Shown: positions 4,909-21,137 of the stretch, piece after piece
Numbering within the stretch: position 1 is the first letter of the stretch
How the letters are laid out: each line of letters starts with the position of its first letter
Source: Candidatus Enterococcus murrayae
GTDB lineage: Bacteria > Bacillota > Bacilli > Lactobacillales > Enterococcaceae
Assembly: GCF_017315985.1 (NCBI RefSeq)
Contig: NZ_JAFLVR010000012.1
Span: 95,972 to 119,971, forward strand
Length of the DNA stretch: 24,000 nucleotides
Direction: 5' to 3'
Notes under the pieces: generated by a model
Databases searched by the model: none
The model's input: only the letters and a program-made list of their open reading frames with translations
Told to the model about the DNA's origin: nothing
Translations under genes and position numbers: made by a program

Positions 4909-5090
4909 GTTTGAAATTAGATTTTTACTTGTAGAAGCCTTGCCAGTTCTAGAGCATCAAATAGTGAAGGCTTGTGTATGAAGCGAATTGATTGTTCAGT
5001 GCGATATTATGAAAAGTGAGGCTCTATTCAGTCTTAACTGGTGGAAGAAAAGTTCTCCTATAGCTGGACTGATGGGTGATAAATAAATTT

Positions 5091-5137
5091 AGGCAATACC
5101 AAGATACTTTGAGTGGTGTTTTGGTATTGCCTTTTTT
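5091..5137 (+). terminator. rho-independent terminator about 180 nt downstream of the esterase stop
   Basis: Stem aggcaataccaa (5091-5102) pairs with ttggtattgcct (5121-5132), followed by tttttt. Confidence 0.7.
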
Positions 5138-5298
5138 GCATTTGCGAAGATAAAAGGAATGGTTTGTATAAATAATAGCTCGATGATCCTGAACAGATGC
5201 TTTCTCTTTTTATAAATAGAACTGGCTGTGCTTTAAAAACTAAGTATTTAAAAGTTTTCAGTTTTTCTCTCAATATTAGGATGGTAGATAATTTTCTA

Positions 5299-5326
5299 TT
5301 GACAGAGCTCTCTCGAGTTGTATCCT
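5299..5326 (+). promoter_or_regulatory. candidate promoter of the PucR-type regulator gene
   Basis: TTGACA (5299-5304), a 16-nt spacer, then TATCCT (5321-5326). The -10 is weak. Pattern match only. Confidence 0.25.
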
Positions 5327-5336
5327 TATACAAAAG

Positions 5337-7031
5337 GTGGTGTTCCAATTGTTAGATAATCCAATGCAATATGTGTTCAATTATGAGTTTAGAGATGTTA
5401 CGGTTAAGGACTTGGTCAAGTCTAAAAAACTTGAAGCAAGTGAGGTATACGCAGATGAATTAAGCTTGGATAATATAATCAAAAGTGCAACTGTTATGGA
5501 TGTAGAAGATATTGTTCCTTGGTTGCATGAAGGAGATGTTGTTTTTATTAGTAGATTCATGAAAAATTGCTTTACTAATATTTTTATTCAGCGAATTCTA
5601 CTAAAAAAAGTATCGTGTGTTATAACACAAAAGAAGTTCAAAAAATATGTGACAGATGAGCAGTTTGAGTTATTGAAGAAGAACAATCTACCGATTATTT
5701 TTGTCTCAGATTCTTCATCTTGGAGTGATTTGATTGTTGCGATACAGAACTTGATTATTCAAAACCAGACCCATTATTTAGTTGAGAATCAAGAGTTTCA
5801 AAATTCCATTATAAATTATTTATCGAGTAGTAGTTCTCAAAATAGTTTATGTGATATTGTGCACAGTTTAACTGGAATAACTATCGCAATCACGAATCGT
5901 AATCTTCAGCTAGTGGATTACTCAAAAGATAATGATTGGGAATCGGACTTAGCTGGATTAACAAAAAAAGAGTTAGTCGAAAAAAAAGCAATCGGAGAAA
6001 ATTTTAATGAATTGCCAATATTCGGGTTTCACTATTCAAGAGAAAGCCAAGCAGAAACACCTGATTATTTTGTTATTCCTGATCGTTTATCAAGATATGG
6101 TGCATGTTTTTATATCATCGTTAAGCACAAAGAAGAGACTTTATATTTATCTCCTCAGATTATAGGTCGAATAGAAACAGTGGAGTCAATTTACTCATTG
6201 AAGCATAGTATTATCTCAGATTTGAGAAAGTCCAATTATTATTTTAAGACGGTAGTTTTTGAAGACTTATTAGAAATGGAAGAGAGAGATGAAAAGAAAC
6301 GCCATCATATCAGTTTGAATTTGAAACAAGACTTGAAAGAATATTATCACTTAATAATAATAAAAAATGCCAAAGACAATACGATTTGCAAAAATGTTGA
6401 TTTATTAACAGGCTTTATTGATTATATTAAGCACAAGGGGTTTGCCGATGATGAGCTTCTACTGTTTGTTTATAAAGAGCATTGGATCATTTTGATTGAT
6501 GATTCCATCCATTCTATTAAGAAGACCGGTGATACAATTTATGAGTTACTGGTTACATATTTTGAGAATGATGGATTTGTTATAGGAATCAGCAATCTAC
6601 ACCATTATTGGGAGTTAAAACAGGCGTTTAATGAAGCCTCATTTGCTGTTGATTATTTGGTCCATAATAGTAATTCCCAATCAACATTGCTATACAATGA
6701 GTTAGGAATAATTAAGCTTTTTACAGACCAGAATAGTCAAATCAATAGTGTTTATACTAATGAAATGTATCGAACTTTTTTGAAGCCTGTTTTAGAGTAT
6801 GATAAGGAGCAGCAAACGGCATTATATGAAACCTTGGTCACATTTTTTTCCAATGACTTGTCTTTCGTAAAGACGAGTGCAACTCTGTTTATCCATGTGA
6901 ATACCTTAAGGGCTCGAATAAAAACAATCGAAAAAATTTTGAATGTAGATACAAATCGAATTGATAGCCTAATGAATATACGGTTGGCAGTTCTATTGTA
7001 TCAGTTTGGGTATTTTGAAAAAATAGAATAG
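5337..7031 (+). CDS. PucR/CdaR-family transcriptional regulator
   Basis: The C-terminus carries the PucR-type HTH (SATLFIHVNTLRARIKTIEKILNVD), and the length of about 560 aa is typical of PucR-like regulators. The start is ambiguous: GTG 5337, TTG 5349 (6 nt after AAGGTGGTG) or ATG 5364. Visibly more AT-rich than its neighbours. Confidence 0.8.
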   Translation: MVFQLLDNPMQYVFNYEFRDVTVKDLVKSKKLEASEVYADELSLDNIIKSATVMDVEDIVPWLHEGDVVFISRFMKNCFTNIFIQRILLKKVSCVITQKKFKKYVTDEQFELLKKNNLPIIFVSDSSSWSDLIVAIQNLIIQNQTHYLVENQEFQNSIINYLSSSSSQNSLCDIVHSLTGITIAITNRNLQLVDYSKDNDWESDLAGLTKKELVEKKAIGENFNELPIFGFHYSRESQAETPDYFVIPDRLSRYGACFYIIVKHKEETLYLSPQIIGRIETVESIYSLKHSIISDLRKSNYYFKTVVFEDLLEMEERDEKKRHHISLNLKQDLKEYYHLIIIKNAKDNTICKNVDLLTGFIDYIKHKGFADDELLLFVYKEHWIILIDDSIHSIKKTGDTIYELLVTYFENDGFVIGISNLHHYWELKQAFNEASFAVDYLVHNSNSQSTLLYNELGIIKLFTDQNSQINSVYTNEMYRTFLKPVLEYDKEQQTALYETLVTFFSNDLSFVKTSATLFIHVNTLRARIKTIEKILNVDTNRIDSLMNIRLAVLLYQFGYFEKIE

Positions 7032-7041
7032 TCATTGAAAC

Positions 7042-7072
7042 AGGCCTTACATAAATTGTAAGGTCTTTTTTG
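7042..7072 (+). terminator. rho-independent terminator after the regulator gene
   Basis: Stem aggccttaca (7042-7051) pairs with tgtaaggtct (7057-7066, one G-U pair), followed by tttttg. Confidence 0.75.
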
Positions 7073-7311
7073 ATTTTTACTAGGCAAGTCTCCTTTGTTT
7101 GTTCATACAATTGTAAGCCTTTTCTTTTGTGTATTTAGCTAATTCATTTTTAGAGTAGATTCTTCTAAACTTAAATTGTTCATAATTATTGTTTTGTAGA
7201 ACATTTGATAAAACAGCTAGGAGTGCGCAACCAAAATTAGCTTCGAAAGGGAGTATGTATAGAAGTACTTGAAAATAAGTAAGAACATTATAGAAGGGAG
7301 TGTCTAGTAGT

Positions 7312-8835
7312 ATGGTTGACGATACAACAAAAAGTAAAAAGAAAATGAAGGGACTCAATTCCTTTGTTGTCATGTTTGTTGTAATGGTCTTTATAACGCT
7401 TTTAACATGGGTAATCCCAGGCGGGGAATACCAATTGGACAAAGCAGGCAACGCAATAGCAGGAACTTATTCTGCTTTGCCTTCAAATAAACAAGGGCTG
7501 TGGGATATTATTGTAGCCCCGATTATTGGAATGGTCGGTAATAGTGCAGTTAGTGGAGCAGTCGCCATTTCATTATACGTTATGCTTTTCGGAAGTTTTC
7601 TAGAAATGATGGATGAAACAGGAGTTATTGGGTTAGTTTTGAAGTCTGTTTCAAAGCGATTTGAAAAGCATCCTTATGTGCTTATTACCGTCTTAACATT
7701 CATTATGGCTTTTTTAGGAACAACCCAAGGTTCCTATGAAGAAGGATATGTTTACGTCTCATTGTTCCTTCCAATTTTTTTAGCACTTGGAATGGACTCT
7801 ATTACTGTATTAATGATTACCGTTTTTGGGACGCAAATTGGGTGTGCGTCTTCTGTGATAAACCCTTTCTCAACCGGGATAGCGTCAGATATTGCGGGAA
7901 TCTCATTTGGTAGTGGGATAATGGAAAGACTGTTGATTTTTTTCGTATTAACCGCTTTTGTTTCATTTATAATTTGCCTTTATGCGAAAAGTGTCAAAGC
8001 TCATCCAGAGCGTTCTATCCAATTTTTTAGGCGCGATGACGATTTACTTGAGTTTGGTGGAGGATCAGAAAATTCTGACAATGATCAGTCAATGAGTGGA
8101 AAGGAAAAGTCCTTAGTAGCGGTATTCATTAGCACCTTTGTCATCATGGTTTTAGCGTTATTTCCATGGACATCTATAAATGAGAATTTCACACTTTTTC
8201 AAGATATCGCAGAATGGATTAATACCACACCTATTATTAACACGATCATCGGCAGTGATGTCGTTGCATTTGGAGATTGGTACTTTGTAGAATTATGCGG
8301 CTTAATGCTCATTATGAGTATTATTTCAGGGAAGGTCGCTGGATTTTCAATTGATAAAATAATCAAGATTATTATGAAAGGTGCTGGAGCATTAATTTCA
8401 ACAGCATTGATGGTTCCTATGGCAAGAGGCATACAAGTATTAATGACGCAAGGAAATATTACGGCAACAATTTTGAATGCTACAGAAAAAAGCATCGGCT
8501 CATTACCATTAATCATTTTCGTCATTTTTGCCTTTGTCATTTATCTAGTGTTTGCTTGTTTTCTTCCTAGTTCAACTGGACTTGCTGGAGCGACTATAGC
8601 AGTCATGGTTCCGTTAGGGAGTTTTGTAGGCGTTGAGCCTTTCATTATGATCATTATTTATAATTTTGCTTTAGGGATAGCGAAGATGTTTACGCCAACC
8701 TCGATTATTGTTATGACCTGTACGCAATATGCAAAGATAGACTATTTGTCTTGGGTTAGAGGTGTTTGGAAACAATTAGCCATGATTTTTGCAGTTTGTT
8801 TAGCGATTGTTTTACTTCTAGTCATCGTTACCTAA
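7312..8835 (+). CDS. YfcC/ArcD-family (DcuC-like) permease, putative substrate/product antiporter of the deiminase operon
   Basis: Polytopic membrane protein of about 507 aa. It has a basic N-terminus (KSKKKMKG), then a TM helix, then WVIPGGEY, which matches what I recall of YfcC-type carriers. I prefer ATG 7312 (AAGGGAG 11 nt upstream) over GTG 7300. Confidence 0.75.
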   Translation: MVDDTTKSKKKMKGLNSFVVMFVVMVFITLLTWVIPGGEYQLDKAGNAIAGTYSALPSNKQGLWDIIVAPIIGMVGNSAVSGAVAISLYVMLFGSFLEMMDETGVIGLVLKSVSKRFEKHPYVLITVLTFIMAFLGTTQGSYEEGYVYVSLFLPIFLALGMDSITVLMITVFGTQIGCASSVINPFSTGIASDIAGISFGSGIMERLLIFFVLTAFVSFIICLYAKSVKAHPERSIQFFRRDDDLLEFGGGSENSDNDQSMSGKEKSLVAVFISTFVIMVLALFPWTSINENFTLFQDIAEWINTTPIINTIIGSDVVAFGDWYFVELCGLMLIMSIISGKVAGFSIDKIIKIIMKGAGALISTALMVPMARGIQVLMTQGNITATILNATEKSIGSLPLIIFVIFAFVIYLVFACFLPSSTGLAGATIAVMVPLGSFVGVEPFIMIIIYNFALGIAKMFTPTSIIVMTCTQYAKIDYLSWVRGVWKQLAMIFAVCLAIVLLLVIVT

Positions 8836-8912: not shown

Positions 8913-10025
8913 ATGACAGTATCAATTAAAGGAAGACACTTTTTAGCTTTGGAGGATTTTACTCCTGAGGAGATTCGCTATTTGCTTGATCTAGCATTAC
9001 AATTGAAAGAAGAGAAACATGCAGGAAAAAATCAACAGGAATTTATCGGAAAAAACTTATTGATGCTTTTTGAAATGAATTCTACTCGAACACGATGTGC
9101 TTTCGAGACCTCTGGCTGTGATCTTGGAATGGGGACGACATTTCTGTCTAATTCACATTTTGGGGAAACAGAGACGATTAAAGATTCGATGAGAGTATTT
9201 AGCAGCATGTATGATACCATCGGTTATCGTGGAGCTAAACATAGTACTTTATTGGAAATGACAAAGCACAGTACGATTCCAATTATTAATGGGTATACCG
9301 ATCACCAGCATCCTACACAAATGTTGGCCGATGCGATGACTTTAGATGAAATATGGGGACGTGAAGGATACAAAGGAAAGACATTATGCTTTATTGGTAG
9401 AGGTGGAGCCGTTAATTCCTTTTCTTACGGTGTGATTTGCGCGATGCTAGGGATGAATTTCACTTATATCACTTCTTATATGGATTTAGAGGAAGCAATG
9501 GACGGCTTAACTCAGGCGCAACGTGACCTTTTCCATCAATTTGTACCAGAAGGAGAAGTATCACCTAACTGGAACACTAAAATGGATCCTAAAAAGCGCA
9601 AAATTGTGGAAGATTTATTTGCTAAGTATAGCCCAGATTGCAAATTTATTGAAACCGATAACATTGATGCAATTAAAGGTGTCGACATTATTACGACGGA
9701 AAATTGGGGGTTCTTTACCGATCCAGTTGAAACATGGTTACCTGGAATTATTCGTTTCCGACCTTATCAAGTTAATCGTGAGCTTATGGAGCGCACAGAA
9801 AATCCGAACTGTATTGCTCTTCACATGCTTCCAGCAACTCATAATATGGATCATGCCTCTGGTCAAAGGTTGCTTACTGCGGTAGATGACAAAGATTTAC
9901 AAGAGTTTCTGAAGAAAGGAATGGAAGTAACGGACGAGGTCTTTGAAGAAAATGCGGCGCATATTTTTAGAGAGGCTGAAAATAGATTGCATACTATTAA
10001 AGCAGTTATTCGTGCTGTTCAATAA
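8913..10025 (+). CDS. carbamoyltransferase of the OTC/ATC superfamily, with catabolic-OTC-like backbone but non-ornithine specificity motifs
   Basis: SD GGAGGAG. Carbamoyl-phosphate motifs are intact: STRTR (aa 57-61, nt 9081-9095), YRG Arg106 and HPTQ (aa 133-136, nt 9309-9320). The C-terminal EVTDEVFE...EAENRLHTIKAV is OTC-like. However, the OTC DxWxSMG loop reads TENWGFF (nt 9696-9716) and HCLP reads HMLP (nt 9822-9833). An extra segment of roughly 25-30 aa sits around aa 190-235. Confidence 0.85.
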   Translation: MTVSIKGRHFLALEDFTPEEIRYLLDLALQLKEEKHAGKNQQEFIGKNLLMLFEMNSTRTRCAFETSGCDLGMGTTFLSNSHFGETETIKDSMRVFSSMYDTIGYRGAKHSTLLEMTKHSTIPIINGYTDHQHPTQMLADAMTLDEIWGREGYKGKTLCFIGRGGAVNSFSYGVICAMLGMNFTYITSYMDLEEAMDGLTQAQRDLFHQFVPEGEVSPNWNTKMDPKKRKIVEDLFAKYSPDCKFIETDNIDAIKGVDIITTENWGFFTDPVETWLPGIIRFRPYQVNRELMERTENPNCIALHMLPATHNMDHASGQRLLTAVDDKDLQEFLKKGMEVTDEVFEENAAHIFREAENRLHTIKAVIRAVQ

Positions 10026-10052: not shown

Positions 10053-11324
10053 ATGAATAATTTAGAGTATAAAGAACTAGATTATAAGGATTTTAGATTT
10101 CCGGGTGAGTTTGAACCCCAGGAAGCAGTAATCCTAGGCTGGCCAGAAATGGCTGAATGTGTTAAAGGGTACAGTCTTCATCAGGCTTTTGCACAATTAA
10201 TTAAAATTATTGTTGAACAAGCTAATGATGTAACCGTTTATGTAAACTGTCCAAAAGAAGAGATGGTAACTAGTTGTAAAAAAGCTCTTGCTGAAGAAAA
10301 AGTAGACATCGAAAAAGTAAAAATTACTACGTATCCTGATGGCAGTAATTGGACAAGAGATTATGGACCAGACATGATGGTGGACGATAGAGGAAATAAG
10401 ATTTTAGCTAATCCACGCTTCAATATGTATGGGCAAAGTACAATTGACAGCACTACTTCACAACTTTGTGCAAGATTTGCTCCTCATTTAGCATTAGAAA
10501 TGGGGTATAGAGATTTTGTTAATTCAACATTGATTACTGAAGGCGGCGACAAAGAGTTCAATGGTAATGGTGTCCTGATGACACTAAGAGATACGGAGGT
10601 AACTAAGCGCAATCCGCATATGTCTACAGAAGAAGTGGAAAAAGAGTTAAAACGATTGTTCAATGTCAAGAAAGTTATATGGTTTGAAAAAGGTGTTTTT
10701 GATGATGAACTAACCACTTCAGGTGTTTTGGACTATGTAGATGGTGAGCCCGTTTACCGCTCTTCTTCTGCGAATGGGCATATTGACGAGTTCTGCCGAT
10801 TTGTTGATACGAATACGATTATATTAGCCGAAGTTACAGATGAGGAAGCAGCAACAATGAACTCACATAGGATCACGAAAGAACGTCTAGACGCGGCGTA
10901 TGAAATCCTAAATAATTCTACAGATGCTGCTGGGCAGCCATTCAAAATTTTGAGAATGCCCATCCCTGAGCCATTTTATGTTCATACAAAGAAAGGTGAT
11001 TGGATTAATGACACTTGGACTTGTCGCTACAGCGAAGGCGGCGACTATTTAGATGATGGAACACCGATGCCTCACGGAGATATGGTTATGCAGCCGGCCT
11101 TAAGCTATTGCAACTTTTTAATCTTAAACAATATTGTAATTGCTCAATCCTATTGGGAGGAAGGTCGACCAGAAAGCATTAAGGAACTGGATAAACAAGC
11201 ATTAGCGGTTTTACAAGAGGCCTTTCCTGATCGGAAAATCGTACCATTCGTTAGTACAGCATTAAACATTCGCGGTGGCGGCGTTCATTGTGCAACAAAG
11301 AACATACCAATCTCAGCCAAATAA
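10053..11324 (+). CDS. agmatine-deiminase-family (PAD_porph-type) guanidino-group hydrolase, unusually long (423 aa)
   Basis: SD AAGGAGGAAG. N-terminal FRFPGEFEPQEAVILGWPE, then WTRDYGP, TEGGD, NGHIDEF (His243/Asp245, nt 10779-10787), SYCNFLILNNIVI, FPDRKIV, and C-terminal RGGGVHCATK with the nucleophile Cys413 (nt 11289-11291). Confidence 0.85.
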   Translation: MNNLEYKELDYKDFRFPGEFEPQEAVILGWPEMAECVKGYSLHQAFAQLIKIIVEQANDVTVYVNCPKEEMVTSCKKALAEEKVDIEKVKITTYPDGSNWTRDYGPDMMVDDRGNKILANPRFNMYGQSTIDSTTSQLCARFAPHLALEMGYRDFVNSTLITEGGDKEFNGNGVLMTLRDTEVTKRNPHMSTEEVEKELKRLFNVKKVIWFEKGVFDDELTTSGVLDYVDGEPVYRSSSANGHIDEFCRFVDTNTIILAEVTDEEAATMNSHRITKERLDAAYEILNNSTDAAGQPFKILRMPIPEPFYVHTKKGDWINDTWTCRYSEGGDYLDDGTPMPHGDMVMQPALSYCNFLILNNIVIAQSYWEEGRPESIKELDKQALAVLQEAFPDRKIVPFVSTALNIRGGGVHCATKNIPISAK

Positions 11325-11393: not shown

Positions 11394-12341
11394 ATGACGA
11401 AACCTAAAATTGTAATTGCGTTAGGCGGGAATGCCCTGCAATCAAAAGAGAGTGAGGCAACTGCAGAAGCACAACTAGAAATTGTACGAGAAACTTGTGA
11501 GCATATAGCTGAAATTAGCGGCCGCGGATATGAAATGACTATTGTACACGGGAATGGACCTCAAGTTGGACGAATCATCTTAGCCAGTGAGACGGCCAAA
11601 GATGAAGTACCTCCGATGCCTTTTGATGTATGTAGTGCAATGTCACAAGGCTATATTGGGTATCATCTTCAACAAGCGCTGAAATATGCACTTAATAAAC
11701 GGAATCGGAATGTTCCAGTAGTAACAGTCGCAACACAAATGATTGTAGAGCCAAATGATCCAGCGTTTCAAACACCGAATAAACCAATTGGACCATTTTA
11801 TTCTAAAGAGGAAGCGACATTACTTGAAAAAGAAAAAGGGTATGATTTGAAGGAAGATGCTGGACGTGGGTGGCGTCGTGTCGTTGCTTCACCTTTGCCA
11901 AGAAAAATTGTTGAGATTGATGCAGTAAAAATGCTGTGGAACAATGCAATTGTGATTACCTGTGGCGGCGGCGGAATCCCAGTAATTGAAAAGTCAGATG
12001 GACTATTAGAAGGAGTCCCAGCTGTGATTGATAAAGATTACGCAGCTGAACTTTTAGCTGAACAAGTTGAGGCGGATTTTTTACTCATTCTTACAGAAGT
12101 AGAAAAAGTGGCAATTAATTTTAATAAGCCTAATCAAAAAAACTTAAGCAGCATGAGTCTCACAGAAGCAACCAAATATGTGGAAGAAGGCCATTTTGCA
12201 GCAGGTAGTATGTTGCCAAAAGTTCAAGCAGCAATGAAATTTGTTAGAAGTAATCCGTCAAAAAAGGCAATTATTACTTCGTTGGACAAAGTAATAGAAG
12301 CTTTAGATGGTAAAACTGGAACACATATTACATTTGCTTAG
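11394..12341 (+). CDS. arcC: carbamate kinase
   Basis: SD AAGGAG. N-terminal IVIALGGNAL, then HGNGPQVG, CGGGGIPV and a C-terminal amino-acid-kinase fold. Its 315 aa matches carbamate kinases. Confidence 0.9.
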   Translation: MTKPKIVIALGGNALQSKESEATAEAQLEIVRETCEHIAEISGRGYEMTIVHGNGPQVGRIILASETAKDEVPPMPFDVCSAMSQGYIGYHLQQALKYALNKRNRNVPVVTVATQMIVEPNDPAFQTPNKPIGPFYSKEEATLLEKEKGYDLKEDAGRGWRRVVASPLPRKIVEIDAVKMLWNNAIVITCGGGGIPVIEKSDGLLEGVPAVIDKDYAAELLAEQVEADFLLILTEVEKVAINFNKPNQKNLSSMSLTEATKYVEEGHFAAGSMLPKVQAAMKFVRSNPSKKAIITSLDKVIEALDGKTGTHITFA

Positions 12342-12482: not shown

Positions 12483-13472
12483 ATAACACGACTTTTATGT
12501 TTTGAAGCGAATGAAGAACGAAAAGTGTTTGTTAATGAATGGGTGAAAAAAACTGGTGTTCAAGTAGATACTGTTCCTTACAAACTCACTTTGGAAACTG
12601 TAGATATGGTTCGAGGATATGATGGTGTTTCCATATCAGAAGCTGGGAAATTCGATTCTTCCATTTTTCCTCAACTAAGTAAATATGGAATTAAACACTT
12701 AGCGCAGAGAACATCTGGTTTTGAAGGGTTTGACTTGGAAGCTGCCAAGCGCAGTGGAATTATTATTACAAACGTTTCTAGCTACTCACCAGAATCTATC
12801 GCGGAGTTCACGCTTATGCTCGCACTCCAGCTAGTAAGAAGATCAAAGGATTTGGATCAACGTGTTAAAAGGTTTGATTTCAATTGGAGTCCAGAGGTAA
12901 GAGGGAAGGTAATGAAGGAACAAACAGTTGCTATTATAGGCGTTGGACGAATTGGTTATGAAGTGGCAAAATTGTTCAAGGCTTTTGGTTCGACCATCAA
13001 CGGTTATGCTACGCACCGCAATAAAAATGCGAATGATCTATTTGAATACAAAGATTCAATTGAAGAAGCAATCCATAACGCAGATATAATAACTCTTCAT
13101 ATACCTGGAAAGGAAAAGAACCATCATTTATTTGATAAAAAAATGTTCAATAAGTTTAAACCAGGGGCTTGCTTGATTAATACTTCTCGTGGTTCATTAG
13201 TTAATACATCGGATCTAATTGAAGCATTAGATAGTGGGAGAGTTTCAGCAGCAGCTTTAGATGTCTATGAAAATGAAGCGGAATACATTCCTGGTAAACA
13301 TGAAGAAATTTCAGATACTGTTTTCAAAGAATTACTAAACCATCCGAAAGTTACTTTTTATCCCCACTGCGCCTACTATACTGATGTTTCCATGCGAAAT
13401 ATGGTCCATTATGCGTTGGATTCGATTATAGAGGTTATTGAGACTGGCGATAGCTTTTCAAGAGTCAACTAG
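12483..13472 (+). CDS. D-isomer-specific 2-hydroxyacid dehydrogenase (D-lactate-dehydrogenase-like), with ATA at the expected initiation codon
   Basis: NAD motif IIGVGRIGYEVA and catalytic triad context NTSRGSLV / LDVYENE / YPHCAYYT. The track starts at GTG 12525, but the frame is open from 12480 and encodes the family-typical beta-1 strand (x)TRLLCFEANEERK. SD AGGTGA (12470-12475) lies 7 nt before ATA 12483. No ATG, GTG or TTG is available there. Confidence 0.7.
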   Translation: MTRLLCFEANEERKVFVNEWVKKTGVQVDTVPYKLTLETVDMVRGYDGVSISEAGKFDSSIFPQLSKYGIKHLAQRTSGFEGFDLEAAKRSGIIITNVSSYSPESIAEFTLMLALQLVRRSKDLDQRVKRFDFNWSPEVRGKVMKEQTVAIIGVGRIGYEVAKLFKAFGSTINGYATHRNKNANDLFEYKDSIEEAIHNADIITLHIPGKEKNHHLFDKKMFNKFKPGACLINTSRGSLVNTSDLIEALDSGRVSAAALDVYENEAEYIPGKHEEISDTVFKELLNHPKVTFYPHCAYYTDVSMRNMVHYALDSIIEVIETGDSFSRVN

Positions 13473-13576
13473 TCTATGATTTTAATAAAATTGACAAAAT
13501 TAGTAAAGTAGTTGAATAGACAAGGCAGTAAAAAACATTAATAGAAATCTGTGACCCATTAAAACTATTAGATTTG

Positions 13577-13623
13577 AAACAGAGCTGATTTAGAAAGGAA
13601 ATCTTCTAAATCAGCTCTGTTTT
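13577..13623. terminator. bidirectional rho-independent terminator shared by the dehydrogenase (+) and epimerase (-) genes
   Basis: A perfect 19-bp stem: aaacagagctgatttagaa (13577-13595) pairs with ttctaaatcagctctgttt (13604-13622), with an 8-nt loop. A/T runs at both ends. The right arm overlaps the last codons of the minus-strand gene. Confidence 0.8.
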
Positions 13624-14393: not shown

Positions 14394-16448
14394 ATGAAAG
14401 CGAATCAGCGTTTATTAGAACTGATCTATTTTTTCGAAACGACTCCCAAAACGTCGATCAAAGATATTGAGTCCCAGTTAAATATTCCAGAAAGTGCCGT
14501 GCGTTATGAAATTGATAATCTGAACTATTATCTTAGAATGATGGAACTACCAGAAATTCAAAAGGAAAATAATGGTCAGCTTATTTCAACTGTAGTGAAT
14601 TTTGAACCTGTAAATCAATTATTAGAAGAAATCTATAGGCCTGATTCGAAAAAAAGACGAGATTATTTAACGTTCAAGTTAGTACTCGCAGGAAAAATCA
14701 ATATTCAAAAGGAATCGATATTTCTAGATGTAACTAGAAATACAGTCAAATCAGATTTAAGGAGTGTCATTCAAGTTCTCGAACGTGAACAAATATACGT
14801 AAAAGAACGGAAAATCATTGCTGGAAACGAATTGGAGATGCGCCGCTTTATTTTGAACCGTTATCGAGAAAATTATTTGGTTCTCTTCTCTGAAAAGGAG
14901 AAACGACTGATCTCTAATCCCATTGAACGAAGAATTCTTGAGGATCTTGAAGATATTGATTTTGGAAAAATGGCGGCTCAAATAAAAGAGTTAGCAAAAA
15001 ACTATCCATTCACTAACTTTTATGAAACATTTTTGCTAAATGTACTAGTGACCATTCATCGTAATCATTATGGTCATTCAATTCAAGAAGTTCAAAACGT
15101 CTCTCAAATTCAAGCACTTGGGGAATATATAGCTATCAGGAAACTCATGCAGAGTATCGGAGGGAGGTATAACTTTTCTGAAAGAGAGATCGCCTATTTG
15201 ACGGAAATTTTAGTCAGTTATAGTGAAGAGTCAATCAATCAGAGTTACCAGAAGAATCTTTTGTCTTTCAAATTATTTGTTTCCAAACTAGTGACTAGTG
15301 TTGGTAAGGAGCTTGGGATGGAATTAACAGAAGATCCTATTCTAATGGAAGGGCTTTATCAACACGTTAAAAGCACGATTTATCGAAAGAACAACTCCTA
15401 TGAGATGGATAGTGAGATTTATCAACAAGCTATTGGGAACTATCAAAGCTTATTTTCGCTTTTAGAAAAAAATATTGAGTTTTATCAGAATGAACTTAAT
15501 GTTCACTTTACAAAAGAAGACATTGCTTTGTTTGTGATTCATTTCTTAGGAGGGATAAGAAGATTTCAAGAAACACATCAGCCTAATTTAAGAGTTTTAC
15601 TCGTATGTCATTCAGGCTATGGAACATCAGTCCTTTTAAAAAATCTGATCGAAAAAAATTATAACGTTGAGGTGGTTGGAACTTCTTCCATCTATCAAAT
15701 CAATGATTACCTTTCTCAAAACATTGATTTGATCGTGAGTACTTTATATTTTTCCTTTGAAATTAAAAAAACAGTAGAAGTTCCCATTCTGTTTATTTCG
15801 CCGTTCTTAACCTTTAATGATGATCAGAAGTTAAAAGAATTTGGAATTACTAGAAAACGGGAAAAAAATAAAATTTCTGTAAATAAATTATTGAAAGTGC
15901 TAGAGCGTCATACCACTATTTCTAATTCCTTAAGTTTGAAAAAGGACTTATTAGCTGCTTTTCCAGAGAATCTACAAGAGGAGCGAAAAGAATCTAGTCT
16001 GTTTGATGGCCTCAAAGATGAAGACATTACTTTCGTTCAAGAAATAGAGGATTGGCAAACGGGATTGTCCATGTGCAGCCAATCGCTGGAACAAAACCAA
16101 GTTGTGAAAAAGAGTTATTTGGAGGGAATATCACAATCCGTTAATTTATATGGTGCCCATTTTGTTATTCGGAATCAAATTGCGATTCCTCACGGCAGTG
16201 AGAAAAGTGGAGTTTTAAAATCAGGTATCCATATTCTTTATGTGAAAAATCCAGTTATTTTTCCAAATGAATTACCAGTAAGACTGATATTCTTTATTGC
16301 TTCGAAAGAAAAAGAGCTATTAATAAATACAGTGATGACTATCAATGCTATTTCTCATGATAAAAAGTTTTATCAAAAATTAGACCACGCAATTGAAAAA
16401 GCAGAATCCTTATCTGATTTCTTCAAAGAGTGGCTCGATGGAGTGTGA
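14394..16448 (+). CDS. PRD-domain transcriptional activator (MtlR/LicR type: HTH, two PRDs, EIIB-Gat-like domain, EIIA-Mtl/Fru-like domain)
   Basis: SD AAAGGAGG. N-terminal winged-helix region, central PRD-like helical region with His-containing segments (VTIHRNHYG, LFVIHFLGG), EIIB-like LRVLLVCHSGYGTSVLL, and a C-terminal EIIA-like domain with IAIPHGS. Confidence 0.85.
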   Translation: MKANQRLLELIYFFETTPKTSIKDIESQLNIPESAVRYEIDNLNYYLRMMELPEIQKENNGQLISTVVNFEPVNQLLEEIYRPDSKKRRDYLTFKLVLAGKINIQKESIFLDVTRNTVKSDLRSVIQVLEREQIYVKERKIIAGNELEMRRFILNRYRENYLVLFSEKEKRLISNPIERRILEDLEDIDFGKMAAQIKELAKNYPFTNFYETFLLNVLVTIHRNHYGHSIQEVQNVSQIQALGEYIAIRKLMQSIGGRYNFSEREIAYLTEILVSYSEESINQSYQKNLLSFKLFVSKLVTSVGKELGMELTEDPILMEGLYQHVKSTIYRKNNSYEMDSEIYQQAIGNYQSLFSLLEKNIEFYQNELNVHFTKEDIALFVIHFLGGIRRFQETHQPNLRVLLVCHSGYGTSVLLKNLIEKNYNVEVVGTSSIYQINDYLSQNIDLIVSTLYFSFEIKKTVEVPILFISPFLTFNDDQKLKEFGITRKREKNKISVNKLLKVLERHTTISNSLSLKKDLLAAFPENLQEERKESSLFDGLKDEDITFVQEIEDWQTGLSMCSQSLEQNQVVKKSYLEGISQSVNLYGAHFVIRNQIAIPHGSEKSGVLKSGIHILYVKNPVIFPNELPVRLIFFIASKEKELLINTVMTINAISHDKKFYQKLDHAIEKAESLSDFFKEWLDGV

Positions 16449-16452
16449 TAAG

Positions 16453-16923
16453 ATGCTTAACCAAGATTTTGTTTATTTTGACGAAGAATACAAATCAGCC
16501 CGGGATTTACTCTCACAAATTGCCAAGGATTTGTATAAAAAAGGCTACGTTAAAGAAACGTATGAACAGTCTATTATTTCTAGAGAAGAGAAGTACCCTA
16601 CAGGTTTGAAGTTAGCAGGCTTGAATATCGCAATCTGTCATACAGAACCTAAAGATGCTGTTAAAAATACCTTGTTTTTAGTAAAACCAGCTCAGCCCGT
16701 ATTTTTTAAGAATGCTGAGACATTAGAAATACTGCCGGTGGATTTGGTCATTGGTTTGGTATTCAGTGATGGGAAAATCCATTTAAAGAATCTTTCTTTT
16801 TTAGCTCAGTTATTTACCAATCAACAATTCATTCAGGAAATTAAGCAGGCGGCTTCAAAGAGAGAACTGATAACGACCTTTTCTCATTTTGCGCAGATAG
16901 GAGGAGAGCAATGGAGCGATTGA
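16453..16923 (+). CDS. PTS EIIA component (PTS_EIIA_2, ascorbate/galactitol/SgcA type)
   Basis: I prefer ATG 16453 (MLNQDFVYF...), 4 nt after the regulator stop, over the overlapping track start at 16393. EEKYPTGL and a NIAICHTE phospho-His context. 156 aa. Confidence 0.8.
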   Translation: MLNQDFVYFDEEYKSARDLLSQIAKDLYKKGYVKETYEQSIISREEKYPTGLKLAGLNIAICHTEPKDAVKNTLFLVKPAQPVFFKNAETLEILPVDLVIGLVFSDGKIHLKNLSFLAQLFTNQQFIQEIKQAASKRELITTFSHFAQIGGEQWSD

Positions 16924-18023
16924 AGCAGTTGATTATGGAATTATCCGATTTACCAGGAAATGTTGGTTACGAAGATCAAGTCATTCAGTATTTGCTAGAC
17001 AGTTTAGGCGAGGAAAAGCAGGTTTCTCTCGATATATTAGGAAACTTGACCGTTCACTTAACGCCAAAAAACATAGGAAAACAAAGAGTTATGCTTTTTG
17101 GACATATGGATGAGGTTGGCATGATGGTCAATCATATCGACAAAAATGGATTTATCTACTGTGAGAAACTGGGTTCATTGAATCCTACTTGCCTTGCAGG
17201 TTTAAAACTCGAGTTACATGGGGAGAAAGGATCAGTCAATGGGGTCGTGGGAGTAAAGTCTCATCATTTGGCAAAACAAAAAGAGGGAAAGATTCCAGAG
17301 AATGCTCGGGACTACTATTTGGATGTTGGGGCTTTAAGTAGGGACGAAGTATTAGATGCAGGGATTGACATAGGTTCTCCGGTCACTTTCAAGCCACAAT
17401 TCTTGCAATTATATGGAAACTGCATCGCAAACAAGGCGATGGATGACCGTGCGTTGTTAGGAATTTTACTCTATTTGACTGAGAATTTAGCCATTGAGAA
17501 ATTGGACGTAGACTTATATCTAGTATTTAGCGTTCAAGAGGAATTCAACACTCGCGGGATTATGCCGACTGTTAGAGAGATTCATCCAGATATTGTTATT
17601 GGTTTAGATGTTACTCCGGCAACTGACACACCGGATTTATCCGGATTATCTGAGATTAAGTTAGGAAAAGGTCCCGCATTAACTTTCATGAATCATCATA
17701 GCCGCGGCACATTAGCAGGCATTGTTCCGAATAAACGATTTTTGACCTATTTAGAAACTATGGGGGAAAGAGCTGGTATACCGATTCAGAGAGAAGTAGC
17801 CACAGGGATTTTGACTGAGACAGCTTATATCGCCATTGAAAATAATCAAACTGTTGTAGCGAATATTTCATTGCCTACTCGATATACACATTCGCCTGTT
17901 GAAGTTATCCATTTGGAAGATGCACTAGGAATTTATCAATTGTTGGCAGAATTTCTACTTTCTTTAGATGGCACTCAAAAGTTTGGAAAAAATAGTGATT
18001 TTGAAAGGAATGATAATAAATGA
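16911..18023 (+). CDS. M42-family metallopeptidase-like protein (SgcX/FrvX type)
   Basis: SD AGGAGGAG. It overlaps the EIIA gene by 13 nt. All M42 metal ligands are present in context: FGHMDEVG, AMDDRAL, SVQEEFNTRG, IGLDVTPA and RYTHSPVE. Confidence 0.85.
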   Translation: MERLKQLIMELSDLPGNVGYEDQVIQYLLDSLGEEKQVSLDILGNLTVHLTPKNIGKQRVMLFGHMDEVGMMVNHIDKNGFIYCEKLGSLNPTCLAGLKLELHGEKGSVNGVVGVKSHHLAKQKEGKIPENARDYYLDVGALSRDEVLDAGIDIGSPVTFKPQFLQLYGNCIANKAMDDRALLGILLYLTENLAIEKLDVDLYLVFSVQEEFNTRGIMPTVREIHPDIVIGLDVTPATDTPDLSGLSEIKLGKGPALTFMNHHSRGTLAGIVPNKRFLTYLETMGERAGIPIQREVATGILTETAYIAIENNQTVVANISLPTRYTHSPVEVIHLEDALGIYQLLAEFLLSLDGTQKFGKNSDFERNDNK

Positions 18024-18295
18024 AAAAAGTGATTGTAGCCTGTGGAACTGGTATGGCGACTTCTTCCATGATCGCGGAGAAAGTCAGACAGGTTCTAGAG
18101 GACAACGAGGTGGAGTACACGCTTTCTCAAGCACAATTAAGTGAGTTAGACATGTACAAAGAAGCAGATTTATTTGTAACGGCGATGCGGATCGAAGAAG
18201 ATTACGGAGTACCGATGGTTGTTGGCACGCCTTTCTTGGTAGGAATCGGGGAAGCTGAAGCAGCTGCGAAGATTATTGAAATTCTAAAAAATTGA
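18020..18295 (+). CDS. PTS EIIB component, galactitol family (GatB/SgcB type)
   Basis: ATGA start/stop overlap with the previous gene. MKKVIVACGTGMATSSM carries the phospho-Cys in the VACG context. 91 aa. Confidence 0.85.
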   Translation: MKKVIVACGTGMATSSMIAEKVRQVLEDNEVEYTLSQAQLSELDMYKEADLFVTAMRIEEDYGVPMVVGTPFLVGIGEAEAAAKIIEILKN

Positions 18296-18315
18296 TTTGA
18301 TAAGGAGGAAGATTG

Positions 18316-19632
18316 ATGGAAGCAATACTCGATTATATTTTATCACTAGGCTCGACAGTATTTGTTCCAATTGTTCTGTTCATTATTGGTCTAATATTTG
18401 GTTTAGGTTTTTTCAAGTCTATCAAATCAGGGATTACTGTAGGTGTTGGATTTATTGGTTTCAATTTAGCAGTTGGACTTATTTCCAGTTTTTTGTCGCC
18501 AGCTGTCAATTTAATTGTGGAGCGATTTGGATTTAATCTAACGGTTATTGACTTAGGATCTGGTGCAGGTGCTGGCGTTGCTTTTTCAACAGTAGTCGGT
18601 GCGTTAATTATCCCAGCGGTTTTCATTTTAAACGTAATCCTTTTGGCTATTGGTGCCACTAAAACGATGAACATTGATATTTTCAATTATTCTCATTACG
18701 CCTTTACTGGAGCAGTCGTCCATACTGTGACAGGAAATTTGGTTTTAGGGATGGGAGTAGCCTTAGTGCAAGCCACATGGTCATTATTATCTGCCGATTA
18801 CACAGCAAAAAGAGTCCAAAATGAGTTAGGAGTTGAAAGTATTTCAATTCCTCAGGGCTATGCAGCAAGCAGTGTTCCGTTATTCGTAATTCTAGATAAG
18901 ATTTACAGTAAAATTCCTTTTCTCCAAAACTCAACTTTGGATATTAAAGGCTTACAGAAAAAAGTCGGATTTATGGGAGATCCAGTGATAATCGGTGGAA
19001 TATTGGGTATCATTTTAAGTTTATTGTCTGGTTATGGCTTTAAAGATGGTGCGAACCTTGTAATGGGTGTCTGCGGAATTATGGTACTGTTTCCGAGAAT
19101 GATCAAAATTATCGTGGAAGGTCTGATGCCTCTATCGGAAGCCGCAAAGGGATTTTTTGCAAAGCATTTCTCTGGAAAAGAAGTATACATCGGACTCGAT
19201 TCCGCAGTTACCTTGGGACATCCTACTACTATGATTATTGGAACAATACTGATTCCTATTACGTTGATACTAGCAGCAATTTTACCAGGAAATCGTGTGT
19301 TGCCTTTAGCTGATTTAGCTTTTGCTGCGTTCTTTATCTGTATGGCGACTATTATCCATAAAGGAAATATCCTAAAAACCTTAATTAGTGGTGTCATTAA
19401 TATGACAGGTATTTTATACATTGCAACATGGATTTCACCTTATTTTACAAAACTAGCGGAAAAAGGCGGCGTGTCAGAATCCGGTGATAAGGTCAGTGCC
19501 TTATGGGCAGGGAATGTCTTTGATTTTGTTATCGCAAACATTGGATTTTTGGGTTATCTTGGCTTGGCCATTTTAATTATAGCAACTTGTTTTATAACGA
19601 TTTTTGTAAAAAGAAATGCTTTAAAAGATTAA
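18316..19632 (+). CDS. PTS EIIC permease, galactitol family (GatC/SgcC type)
   Basis: ATG 18316 lies 7 nt after AAGGAGG (the track used TTG 18313). The N-terminus MEAILDYILSLGSTVFVPIV resembles GatC, and the protein is a polytopic membrane protein of about 438 aa. Confidence 0.85.
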   Translation: MEAILDYILSLGSTVFVPIVLFIIGLIFGLGFFKSIKSGITVGVGFIGFNLAVGLISSFLSPAVNLIVERFGFNLTVIDLGSGAGAGVAFSTVVGALIIPAVFILNVILLAIGATKTMNIDIFNYSHYAFTGAVVHTVTGNLVLGMGVALVQATWSLLSADYTAKRVQNELGVESISIPQGYAASSVPLFVILDKIYSKIPFLQNSTLDIKGLQKKVGFMGDPVIIGGILGIILSLLSGYGFKDGANLVMGVCGIMVLFPRMIKIIVEGLMPLSEAAKGFFAKHFSGKEVYIGLDSAVTLGHPTTMIIGTILIPITLILAAILPGNRVLPLADLAFAAFFICMATIIHKGNILKTLISGVINMTGILYIATWISPYFTKLAEKGGVSESGDKVSALWAGNVFDFVIANIGFLGYLGLAILIIATCFITIFVKRNALKD

Positions 19633-19650
19633 ACATCAGGAGGGAACAAC

Positions 19651-20469
19651 ATGACTTGGTTAAAAGAAAAATTAGGTACAGAAAAGGCAATTATTGCAAT
19701 GTGTCATTTCGATGCGTTGCCGGGGGATCCTCATTTTAATGAGGAAGGTGGTATGGAAAGAGTGATTGAGCATGCCAAAGCTGATTTTTTAGCGCTTCAA
19801 GAAGGCGGCGTTGACGCAGTAATGTTTTCTAATGAGTTTTCTTTACCTTATTTAACAGATGTTCGGACAGAGACAGTAGCCGCAATGGCACGAATCATTG
19901 GAGAGCTGAAACCATTAATTAATATACCATTTGGAGTAAATGTTTTATGGGATGCTAAAAAATCGTTAGACTTAGCAAAAGCCGTGGATGCTGTTTTTGT
20001 AAGAGAGATTTTTACTGGGGTATATGGGTCAGATTTTGGCTTATGGAACACAAATGTCGGAGATACTGTTCGACATCAAAAACAAATTGGCGCTCAAAAC
20101 GTGAAACTTCTTTTTAATATCGTTCCGGAGGCTGCTACTTATCTTGGTGATCGTGACATTACAAGTGTTGCCAAATCAACTGTTTTCAATAATCGTCCAG
20201 ACGCACTTTGTGTCTCAGGTTTGACAGCTGGAACAGAGACAGACGCTAATACTCTAAAGGTTGTCAAAGATGTTGTTCCCAATACTGTTGTTTTCGCCAA
20301 CACTGGTGTCAGACTGAACAATGTTGAAGAACAATTAAAGATCGCTGATGGTGCTGTTGTTGGTACTACGTTTAAGAAAGATGGCGTCTTCGAAAATCAT
20401 GTTGATCAGGCACGTGTGAAGGAATTTATGGATAAGGTCAAAGCGTTTCGTGAGCAGTCCCATTCATGA
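19651..20469 (+). CDS. BtpA/SgcQ-family TIM-barrel protein of unknown function
   Basis: SD AGGAGGG. The AIIAMCHFDALPGDPHF and GGVDAVMFSNEF motifs and the 272-aa length match my recollection of the BtpA/SgcQ family. It sits immediately after EIIC, as sgcQ does in the E. coli sgc cluster. Confidence 0.7.
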   Translation: MTWLKEKLGTEKAIIAMCHFDALPGDPHFNEEGGMERVIEHAKADFLALQEGGVDAVMFSNEFSLPYLTDVRTETVAAMARIIGELKPLINIPFGVNVLWDAKKSLDLAKAVDAVFVREIFTGVYGSDFGLWNTNVGDTVRHQKQIGAQNVKLLFNIVPEAATYLGDRDITSVAKSTVFNNRPDALCVSGLTAGTETDANTLKVVKDVVPNTVVFANTGVRLNNVEEQLKIADGAVVGTTFKKDGVFENHVDQARVKEFMDKVKAFREQSHS

Positions 20470-21137
20470 GCAAACCAACTGTGATCCATCGTTATAAGTT
20501 TGTGATTGATTTTGATGGTACGATTTCAATTAATGATAGTACGACAATGCTGGCTGAAATGTATATTCCTGATCTACATCAGAAATATTTAAGGGAGATT
20601 CGAAATGGAAATATTTCTGTAAGGAAATATATAAAAGAACAATTAGAAGCAATTAGGATTACCAGAGAAGAGTACATTCGTACATTACGAAACGAGATGC
20701 AGATTGACTTGACCTTCAAAAATTTTCTGATAAAGAATTGGGATTTTATGATTGTAAGTGCGGGCACTCTACAAAATGTTTTTTACTCATTAGAAGCAAA
20801 AGGGATAGATATCTCACAAAAACAAATTATTTCAAATCATTTGACTTTCAATGGTGAAGAATTGAAAGTGGAGGCACCGCGCCAATATGATGATCAGGAA
20901 AATGGTATTAATAAGGCTGAAGTCATCAGGAACTATCAGCGACAAGGATATCAAGTTGTTTTTATAGGTGACAGTATTTCAGATTTTGAAGGTGCTAAAG
21001 TTTCGGATATTGTGTATGCCAAAAAGAGCCAGAAATTAGCGAAGTACCTCAAAGCACAAAATATTCCTTTTATTGAGTATCAAAATTTTGACGAAATTGT
21101 TCGTCATTTTCAACGATATTTAGTTGGTATGAAGTAA
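20466..21137 (+). CDS. HAD-superfamily phosphatase (subfamily IB, PSPase/MtnX-like)
   Basis: ATGA overlap with the previous gene. HAD motif I is VIDFDGTIS, motif II is MIVSAGT, and motif III is K...FIGDSISD. Confidence 0.75.
   Translation: MSKPTVIHRYKFVIDFDGTISINDSTTMLAEMYIPDLHQKYLREIRNGNISVRKYIKEQLEAIRITREEYIRTLRNEMQIDLTFKNFLIKNWDFMIVSAGTLQNVFYSLEAKGIDISQKQIISNHLTFNGEELKVEAPRQYDDQENGINKAEVIRNYQRQGYQVVFIGDSISDFEGAKVSDIVYAKKSQKLAKYLKAQNIPFIEYQNFDEIVRHFQRYLVGMK

Follow-up and report, generated by a model that had tools for sequence, protein, structure and literature searches.

Within a 24,000-nucleotide stretch of DNA from Candidatus Enterococcus murrayae (NCBI RefSeq assembly GCF_017315985.1, contig NZ_JAFLVR010000012.1, forward-strand positions 95,972 to 119,971; hereafter the window), the forward-strand open reading frame (ORF) at 8913–10025 encodes a carbamoyltransferase (CT) that represents a genuine, conserved, and unannotated transcarbamylase subfamily with its own deiminase, a long-form protein of the PAD_porph family (long PAD). 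On balance, we lean toward the view that CT and the long PAD form a third pathway of substrate-level phosphorylation that would use a guanidino compound other than arginine or agmatine and would be widespread in gut Firmicutes and Eggerthellaceae; CT would then have a new EC activity, with a pocket lined by Met, Phe, and Trp, equipped with Arg163 and Glu263, and provided with a lid insertion specific to the family. To our knowledge, only two fermentations that combine a deiminase, a transcarbamylase, and a carbamate kinase are established, those of arginine and agmatine. What appears to be new, to judge from the sequences, is an enzyme pair with no prior description, whose pathway logic is itself familiar.

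The translation of 8913–10025 is one unbroken protein of 370 amino acids with an ornithine transcarbamylase (OTC) fold, in which Pfam finds both transcarbamylase domains (OTCace_N and OTCace). The closest solved relatives are catabolic or alpha-type OTCs (E ~1e-60, 33–34% identity), to which CT aligns in an N-terminal block (amino acids 5–183) and a C-terminal block (amino acids 245–368) with extra sequence between the two. The carbamoyl-phosphate-binding motifs of the superfamily are SxRT, HPxQ, and HxLP (PMC4581275); CT has STRTR, HPTQ, and HMLP, all invariant across its family. An earlier note on this DNA, made from the letters alone, had reported the carbamoyl-phosphate motifs as intact, and rechecking of the motif coordinates agrees: STRTR lies at amino acids 57–61 (nt 9081–9095), YRG with R106 at nt 9225–9233, and HPTQ at amino acids 133–136 (nt 9309–9320). 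The same holds for the reading of HMLP (amino acids 304–307, nt 9822–9833) where OTC has HCLP and for the likeness of the C terminus, EVTDEVFE...EAENRLHTIKAV, to catabolic OTC, as this segment aligns position by position with the solved OTCs of the catabolic and alpha types. All of the carbamoyl-phosphate ligands are retained, namely S57-T-R-T-R61, R106, H133-P-T-Q136, L306-P307, and the C-terminal arginine R358. Given that this site is intact and invariant, we predict that CT is a working transcarbamylase rather than a relic.

The second-substrate site is altered throughout. A review of the transcarbamylase family lists K53, N167, D231, S235, and M236 as the residues that bind ornithine (PMC4581275), and every one of them is replaced in CT, by Met, Ala, Glu, Phe, and Phe, respectively, as is C273, by Met. 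The Lys of the OTC motif FxKxSTRT is lost within the segment FEMNSTRTR (nt 9069–9095), where Met55 of CT occupies the place of OTC Lys53 and of Gln50 in putrescine carbamoyltransferase (PTC), the roles of these two residues being taken from PMC3282769 and PMC4581275. The OTC loop GDxxNN, which carries Asn167, reads GRGGAV (nt 9396–9413); Asn167 and Asn168 are gone, and an invariant arginine, Arg163, is gained. In addition, the 80's loop, which a neighboring subunit supplies, is two residues shorter than in OTC, and Gln82 of OTC is His in CT (SNSHFG). These four changes are additions to those listed in the earlier note. The equivalent of the OTC T-D-x-W-x-S-M-G segment (the 240's or SMG loop) is TENWGFFT (nt 9696–9719), of which TENWGFF had been placed correctly (amino acids 262–268, nt 9696–9716) and described as a replacement of SMG by GFF; this register does not stand, as alignment of T-E-N-W-G-F-F-T with T-D-V-W-V-S-M-G of OTC sets G-F-F-T against V-S-M-G, so that Ser becomes Phe, Met becomes Phe, Gly becomes Thr, and Asp becomes Glu. 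Since every residue that binds the head group is replaced, the earlier proposal that the second substrate would lack an alpha-amino-acid head group in that position is reasonable; the accompanying suggestion of a bulkier substrate finds no specific support; a pocket filled with large hydrophobic side chains would be just as compatible with a smaller or more apolar substrate.

The extra residues that had been placed at about amino acids 190–235 are present, and their extent is refined by multiple alignment to 26–31 amino acids at about amino acids 194–224 (nt 9492–9584), immediately past the strand at amino acids 182–186 and opposite a gap in every OTC of the alignment. AlphaFold2, given the family alignment, produced a confident model (predicted local distance difference test score [pLDDT] 90.5, predicted template-modeling score 0.90), in which this strand-7 insertion has a pLDDT of 80–90 and consists of short helices at 192–196 and 201–208 followed by a loop (DSSP). 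Of all the loops, TENWGFFT is modeled with the lowest confidence (pLDDT 66), in keeping with the mobility expected of it. Foldseek returns unknotted alpha-type OTCs first (template-modeling [TM] score 0.91 on the target, 33–34% identity) and the PTC of Enterococcus faecalis later (TM ~0.8, 29–30% identity); as modeled, CT belongs to the unknotted OTC branch of the transcarbamylase superfamily, with the two-domain OTC/ATC fold; knotted members have, in addition, a proline-rich loop and an extended 120's loop. The C-terminal ends of the C-domain strands point to the active site. The strands of the C-domain sheet are ordered 8-7-6-9-10 (PMC4581275). Given this order and the orientation of the strand ends, we expect the insertion to emerge next to the GRGG loop (which follows strand 6), where the second-substrate pocket has its far end. 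A function for the insertion is probable, because it is confidently modeled, would adjoin the GRGG loop, and holds the invariant residues G214 and W220.

Sequence and fold matches alike raise the alternative that CT is an ordinary, divergent catabolic OTC acting on citrulline: OTCs are its top matches by both measures (33–34% identity, TM 0.91), its UniRef label is OTC, and arginine, ornithine, and citrulline are carried by ArcE-type transporters (PMC5300872). However, the replacements of K53, N167, D231, S235, M236, and C273 are fixed in the family; CT falls under the cutoff of the OTC model TIGR00658 (248.9 vs. 280.85), with the remaining OTC models far under theirs; no arcA-type arginine deiminase is encoded nearby, the partner being a PAD_porph enzyme; and engineering of the PTC loop from YGLY to VSMG showed that this loop decides ornithine use (PMC3282769). 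We find it scarcely credible that CT is an OTC of this kind.

Comparison with the other curated families leads outward as well, CT lying below every NCBIfam cutoff for OTC and PTC. Its score is 188.6 against a cutoff of 500 with TIGR04384 (PTC), and the YgeW and AOTC models give 41–79 bits, in the N-domain only. Judged by the defining motifs that we tested, CT lies outside the OTC, PTC, diaminopropionate and diaminobutyrate transcarbamylase (DPTCase and DBTCase), and knotted families. Missing from CT are the OTC motif DxxxSMG (E-N-W-G-F-F-T in CT), the OTC Lys in FxKxSxRT together with Asn167 (FEMNSTRTR; GRGGAV), and the HCLP cysteine of both OTC and PTC (HMLP). The published PTC signature comprises STRT and HCLP, (Y/W)(G/W)(V/L/I)X for XSMG, and a C-terminal helix of ~20 residues (PMC3282769); this helix 13, with the signature (L/f/v/i)XX(F/Y/L/M/v)(L/i/m), is called constant and exclusive to PTCs (PMC3282769). 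Four of the five signature traits are lacking in CT. At the PTC 230-loop, CT has G-F-F-T in register and attains W-G-F-F only with a one-residue shift, with a Phe outside V/L/I; the C-terminal extension is absent, the protein ending level with OTCs (...HTIKAVIRAVQ and stop); and the Lys two residues before STRT is missing as in PTCs, where the residue is Gln; in the CT family it is Met or Leu. DPTCase and DBTCase are marked by (T/S)RWQTTG or TRWQSMG together with HDLP (PMC4581275), in place of which CT has TENWGFFT and HMLP. The combination of TENWGFF and HMLP therefore matches no characterized transcarbamylase class in the alignment, in the curated models, or in the published PTC, DPTCase, and DBTCase signatures, in line with the earlier note, in which Met in HxLP was described as not known from any such class. 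Altered 240's loops and variant HxLP motifs occur in transcarbamylases of biosynthetic clusters (PMC4581275), and CT might by that token be anabolic, like DPTCase and DBTCase, with carbamoylation of an amine leading to a ureido metabolite or a natural product. We judge this very unlikely: the motifs of those two enzymes are missing, the clusters contain no biosynthetic genes, CT is constantly accompanied by transporters, a carbamate kinase of the catabolic type, and a deiminase that acts by hydrolysis, and the hosts are fermentative gut anaerobes.

The motif replacements of CT are family-wide and not due to chance. Among its 120 closest database proteins (61–92% identity, 370–385 amino acids), HMLP is found in 119 and TENWG[F/Y/H]FT in all 120. 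In a 26-sequence alignment of the family, R163-G-G, T262-E-N-W-G (with E263), F268, T269, and H304-M-L-P (with M305) are invariant, as are G214 and W220 inside the insertion, and F267 is present in at least 90% of the sequences; the K53 position is Met, or Leu in a few members, and the N167 position is either Ala, as in the window, or Cys. In an exhaustive HMMER search of 1.8 billion representatives, the entire family forms a single 50%-identity cluster (701 bits), followed among full-length matches by two proteins of a sister clade (48% and 44% identity; 286 and 261 bits), and ordinary OTCs score no higher than 214 bits. In a neighbor-joining tree, the CT family and the sister clade share a long branch that is distinct from both OTCs and PTC-like sequences. 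The NCBI entry identical to CT, WP_207107625.1 (Candidatus Enterococcus murrayae / Enterococcus sp. MJM16), bears the name "hypothetical protein," which is consistent with a score below every curated cutoff. The family recurs in many human- and animal-gut assemblies, with individual proteins on dozens of contigs; a metagenome scan with the family alignment yielded 80 loci, of which 78 encode ordinary HCLP OTCs, one an HDLP protein (L090), and one a sister-clade protein (L020). A literature search returned no paper that combines "HMLP" and "carbamoyltransferase," describes the CT family, or describes a third deiminase pathway, and a search on deiminases of guanidinobutyrate, guanidinoacetate, creatine, homoarginine, and canavanine found nothing relevant; according to a 2015 review, transcarbamylase clades without an assigned substrate or pathway remain (PMC4581275).

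The partner enzyme, a long-form deiminase of 423 amino acids (10053–11324, forward strand; Pfam PAD_porph, 219 bits), keeps the catalytic residues D103, H243, D245, and C413 (Asp, His-x-Asp, and Cys). It scores 166–169 bits against agmatine deiminase models whose cutoffs are 382–483 (166 vs. 382 for the agmatine deiminase [AgDI] equivalog TIGR03380) and is 50–60 residues longer than the solved agmatine deiminases, with the extra residues before the GHID motif and in the linker ahead of SYxNF. In a study of the Medicago agmatine iminohydrolase (MtAIH), segments 212–224 and 278–314 were found to recognize the terminal amine of agmatine (PMC6447857). The long PAD insertions sit in these two segments, which recognize the distal amine in agmatine iminohydrolases, and are rich in conserved acids (D227, D230, D316, and D335), with one conserved arginine (Arg236). 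The protein looks like an active but distinct guanidino-group deiminase, and we presume that it makes the ureido substrate of CT. In Bacillus mycoides CP036132.1 (L009:9038–12365), the gene for a long PAD is flanked by that for a MerR/GyrI-like regulator on one side and that for an AmiS/UreI urea/amide channel on the other, and in Romboutsia weinsteinii (L010:10001–11257) a long PAD is encoded among GNAT acetyltransferases; these stand-alone genes hint at a detoxification or nitrogen-scavenging role of the same deiminase family.

The operon of the window contains the deiminase, CT, a carbamate kinase, and an exchanger-type transporter, all on the forward strand. This neighborhood, which lay beyond the gene that the earlier note considered, supplies the strongest evidence. 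The transporter (7300–8835) is a YfcC/ArcE-type membrane protein (DcuC fold, TC 2.A.118-like; Pfam DcuC, 260 bits) that scores 171 bits against a cutoff of 500 with the NCBIfam model YfcC, "putative basic amino acid antiporter," and for which we found no solved relative; by analogy, we presume that it exchanges substrate for product. Its listed GTG start (7300; region 7270–7310) abuts a ribosome-binding-like sequence, AGAAGGGAG, with zero spacer, and the real start is probably a codon further downstream. Following the long PAD gene are genes for the carbamate kinase (arcC, 11394–12341; TIGR00746 equivalog, 413 bits vs. a cutoff of 358) and for a D-lactate/D-2-hydroxyacid dehydrogenase (12525–13472; NF006374, 373 vs. 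a cutoff of 356). The scan predicted no terminator between these two genes, and the dehydrogenase gene is probably cotranscribed with the operon, at the end of which lies a terminator-like hairpin of 20 pairs (13576–13623). A PucR-family regulator (5337–7031; Pfam PucR and HTH_30), whose gene is parted from the operon by a terminator-like hairpin at 7042–7066, probably controls the cluster. Rfam at the gathering threshold, applied to the window and seven related loci, detected nothing save one unrelated T-box, and no guanidine riboswitch.

Across phyla, CT and the long PAD are encoded adjacently or one gene apart in 15 loci (the window, L001–L008, and L011–L016), from Enterococcus, Enterocloster, Schaedlerella, other Lachnospiraceae, Oscillospiraceae, Slackia, Rubneribacter, Eggerthella guodeyinii, and Allofournierella. 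Loci L001–L008 were obtained in a scan of one genome per species and derive from Enterococcus sp. PF1-24, Enterocloster citroniae, E. aldenensis, a Lachnospiraceae metagenome-assembled genome (MAG), Schaedlerella arabinosiphila, an Oscillospiraceae MAG, Slackia, and Rubneribacter. Across these eight loci and the window, CT, the long PAD, and the YfcC-type transporter occur together in nine of nine, a carbamate kinase in seven, the PucR regulator in seven (the window, L001–L005, and L008), a membrane protein of ~450 amino acids with a Gate domain in six, and a 2-hydroxyacid dehydrogenase inside the operon, ~30% identical to the dehydrogenase of the window, in four (L002, L003, L005, and L008). 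In Enterococcus sp. PF1-24 (L001:4966–7999), the PucR regulator is split by an IS3-family transposase (6023–7078) into a PucR-domain half (4966–5880) and an HTH_30 half (7190–7999) and is probably inactivated. The most abundant CT branch (Eggerthella guodeyinii, Allofournierella, and Angelakisella-like assemblies) has a second, self-contained architecture composed of a TetR regulator, CT, an NhaC-type transporter, PAD, carbamate kinase, and the Gate-domain protein, in varying order and with no further enzymes. ArcE (TC 2.A.118) is a proven arginine/ornithine exchanger, and an NhaC-type protein of Halobacterium is likewise an exchanger of the arginine deiminase (ADI) pathway (PMC5300872). In Eggerthella guodeyinii (L011:8020–9162), a Creatinase_N/Peptidase_M24 protein of 380 amino acids is encoded directly upstream of the TetR–CT cluster and in the same orientation; the other loci showed no such gene, and the protein could be an ordinary Xaa-Pro peptidase.

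The sister clade extends this linkage. Its CTs (P0124 and P0125; L017:6639–10342 and L020:5345–11342) carry FEW(G/E)STRTR, TE(E/G)W(R/I)Y, and HELP or HMLP and are accompanied by a long PAD that is 43% identical to that of the window and has the same insertions, by a divergent TetR regulator, and by major facilitator superfamily transporters of the oxalate/formate–lactate type. In common with the CT family, the sister clade has a hydrophobic residue (here Trp) where OTC has K53, a short 80's loop (SNSHxG), TExW, and a Cys-less HxLP; unlike the CT family, it has no strand-7 insertion, an insertion of 6–16 amino acids inside the 240's loop, GNCA for GRGG, transporters of the major facilitator superfamily, and no carbamate kinase within loci L017 and L020. 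The sister clade probably acts on yet another substrate. Because the pair persists across the two architectures and the sister clade, CT and the long PAD form a single unit in evolution, around which regulators and transporters are exchanged.

Two further cluster members were considered. The Gate-domain protein (PF07670, "Gate/nucleoside recognition"), which is encoded in most loci (L002:4110–5471, L011:14004–15353, and L013:14772–16118 among them) and not in the window, matches the CD0519/CD1768 family weakly. A CtBP/McyI-like D-2-hydroxyacid dehydrogenase is encoded between the transporter and CT at L002:7407–8423, L003:8974–9969, L008:8948–9943, and L005 ~9134–9940; the nearest solved relatives of this Lachnospiraceae-type dehydrogenase are CtBP and McyI. 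CT clusters thus contain two non-orthologous dehydrogenase types, or in several cases none, and we discarded the dehydrogenase as a clue to the substrate on these grounds. We also rejected an oxalurate/oxamate (allantoin) reading, prompted by the PucR regulator and the dehydrogenase, given that the constant partner of CT is a guanidino deiminase and that the TetR-type and sister clusters have no dehydrogenase.

We consider it fairly likely that CT catalyzes the carbamoyl-transfer step, in the phosphorolytic direction, of a so far undescribed fermentation of the deiminase type. This pathway would parallel those of arginine and agmatine, and its product amine, R-NH2, would not be ornithine and would probably not be putrescine. 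From the constant gene set and the parallel with the ADI and AgDI routes, we propose the following course: a guanidino compound, R-NH-C(=NH)NH2, would enter through the YfcC/ArcE-type exchanger and be hydrolyzed by the long PAD to a ureido compound, R-NH-CO-NH2, and ammonia; CT would phosphorolyze the ureido compound to R-NH2 and carbamoyl phosphate, carbamate kinase would convert carbamoyl phosphate and ADP to ATP, CO2, and NH3, and the amine would be exported through the exchanger. We infer which way the reaction runs, that the three enzymes are coupled, that the transporter acts as an exchanger, and that the substrate is not putrescine. Given that CT and the long PAD are both rebuilt at their distal-substrate sites and co-vary there across two clades, the substrate would be neither arginine nor, probably, agmatine. 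The CT pocket has lost its polar ornithine ligands, has gained Met55, Phe267, Phe268, Met305, and Arg163, and has kept an acid, Glu263; these features and those of the deiminase would fit a substrate whose far end is cationic or zwitterionic. Among the candidates are analogues of agmatine and other guanidines of the diamine type, derivatives of arginine that bind in a different register, and omega-guanidino acids.

Several observations weigh against this proposal. No carbamate kinase is encoded near the cluster in L003, L007, L011, L017, and L020; the 2-hydroxyacid dehydrogenase and the Gate-domain protein have no explained place in the pathway; the long PAD also occurs without CT, in Bacillus mycoides and Romboutsia, and the deiminase therefore does not always feed a carbamoyltransferase; and the closest characterized relatives of the long PAD are all agmatine deiminases. 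Moreover, the loss of the Lys, the aromatic or hydrophobic 240's loop, and the acid at the D231/D227 position are changes of the same kind as those of PTC for putrescine (PMC3282769), so that agmatine retains some probability as the substrate. CT would in that case be a convergently evolved PTC and the cluster a second, independent AgDI pathway, leading from agmatine through N-carbamoylputrescine to putrescine and carbamoyl phosphate and thence to ATP. The Lys that is lost pairs with the ornithine carboxylate, W-G-F-F is reminiscent of W-Y-G-L-Y of PTC, E263 stands where D227 of PTC binds the distal amine, the only characterized PAD relatives are agmatine deiminases, and three enzymes with a transporter reproduce the AgDI layout. 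However, the PTC signature failed on HCLP, on the register of the 230-loop, on Gln50, and on helix 13 (TIGR04384, 189 vs. 500), the PAD loops for the agmatine amine are rebuilt, and no AguD-type APC antiporter is present in the cluster. Canonical PTCs are, furthermore, already on record for Enterococcus faecalis, Eggerthella lenta, and Slackia (PMC3282769), lineages in which the CT system also occurs, which suggests a different job for CT. We therefore regard a second agmatine pathway as possible, though doubtful.

The bulky hydrophobic residues (Phe and Met) at all of the polar pocket positions of CT might instead point to a very small substrate, guanidine or methylguanidine, from which the long PAD would form urea or methylurea and CT would release ammonia or methylamine; the Bacillus mycoides long PAD, encoded beside an AmiS/UreI channel and a MerR/GyrI-like regulator, would be in keeping with this. 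Such a reaction is without precedent, however, neither a guanidine riboswitch nor another pertinent Rfam match was found in the loci scanned, and the two large transporters, the 30-amino-acid insertion, Glu263 and Arg163, and the acid-rich lid loops of the long PAD suggest a larger substrate with a charged end. We give this small-guanidine reading little credence.

A third deiminase-type pathway, the reading that we favor, would if true give the transcarbamylase family a new second substrate, and it is directly testable because the cluster brings its own deiminase, kinase, transporters, and regulator. Identification of the substrate would extend the metabolism of gut anaerobes by a further source of energy and by a flux of nitrogen that amounts to three NH3 per molecule, would supply a specificity rule (Met in HxLP, the GFFT loop, and the strand-7 insertion) for the annotation of thousands of genes mislabeled "OTC" or "hypothetical," and would show coevolution of the distal-substrate sites of paired enzymes. 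It might also account for how a guanidino compound of host or dietary origin is turned over.

The remainder of the window includes an unrelated operon of the phosphotransferase system type downstream (14394–21137), which encodes a PRD/EIIA/EIIB regulator (14394–16448), EIIA (16393–16923), an M42 peptidase-like protein, EIIB, a GAT-family EIIC, a BtpA-family protein, and a HAD hydrolase. The listed TTG start of EIIA overlaps the preceding gene by 56 nt and is probably placed too far upstream. An ORF of 263 amino acids at 35–826, upstream of a GT2 glycosyltransferase gene, has no Pfam or NCBIfam match.

Among characterized systems, ArcB-type OTC (PDB 1ORT, 1DXH, 2W37, and 9Y83) is structurally the nearest to CT, with which it shares the unknotted OTC fold (TM 0.9), STRTR, R106, HPTQ, xLP, the C-terminal ENRxHT and C-terminal helix, and clustering with carbamate kinase and an ArcE-type transporter. 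CT differs from ArcB in the substitutions K53M, N167A, D231E, S235F, M236F, and C273M, in its 80's loop (shorter by two residues) and its 26–31-residue insertion, in the replacement of ArcA by a PAD_porph partner, and in scores under the OTC model cutoffs. The PTC AguB of E. faecalis (PDB 4A8H and 3TXX) resembles CT in its deiminase/carbamoyltransferase/carbamate kinase setting beside an enzyme of the agmatine deiminase family, in the missing OTC Lys, in an aromatic or hydrophobic loop for SMG, and in the acid at the D227 position; in contrast, CT has HMLP rather than HCLP, Met rather than Gln50, GFFT in register, no helix 13, and an additional insertion, and at 29–30% identity it is more distant from PTC than from OTCs. 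The long PAD, in turn, shares with the agmatine deiminases AguA and AIH (PDB 2JER, 2EWO, and 6NIB) the pentein fold of PAD_porph proteins and the catalytic Cys, His, and two Asp, and is set apart from them by some 50–60 additional residues, by insertions in both distal-amine loops, and by a score of less than half of the equivalog cutoff.

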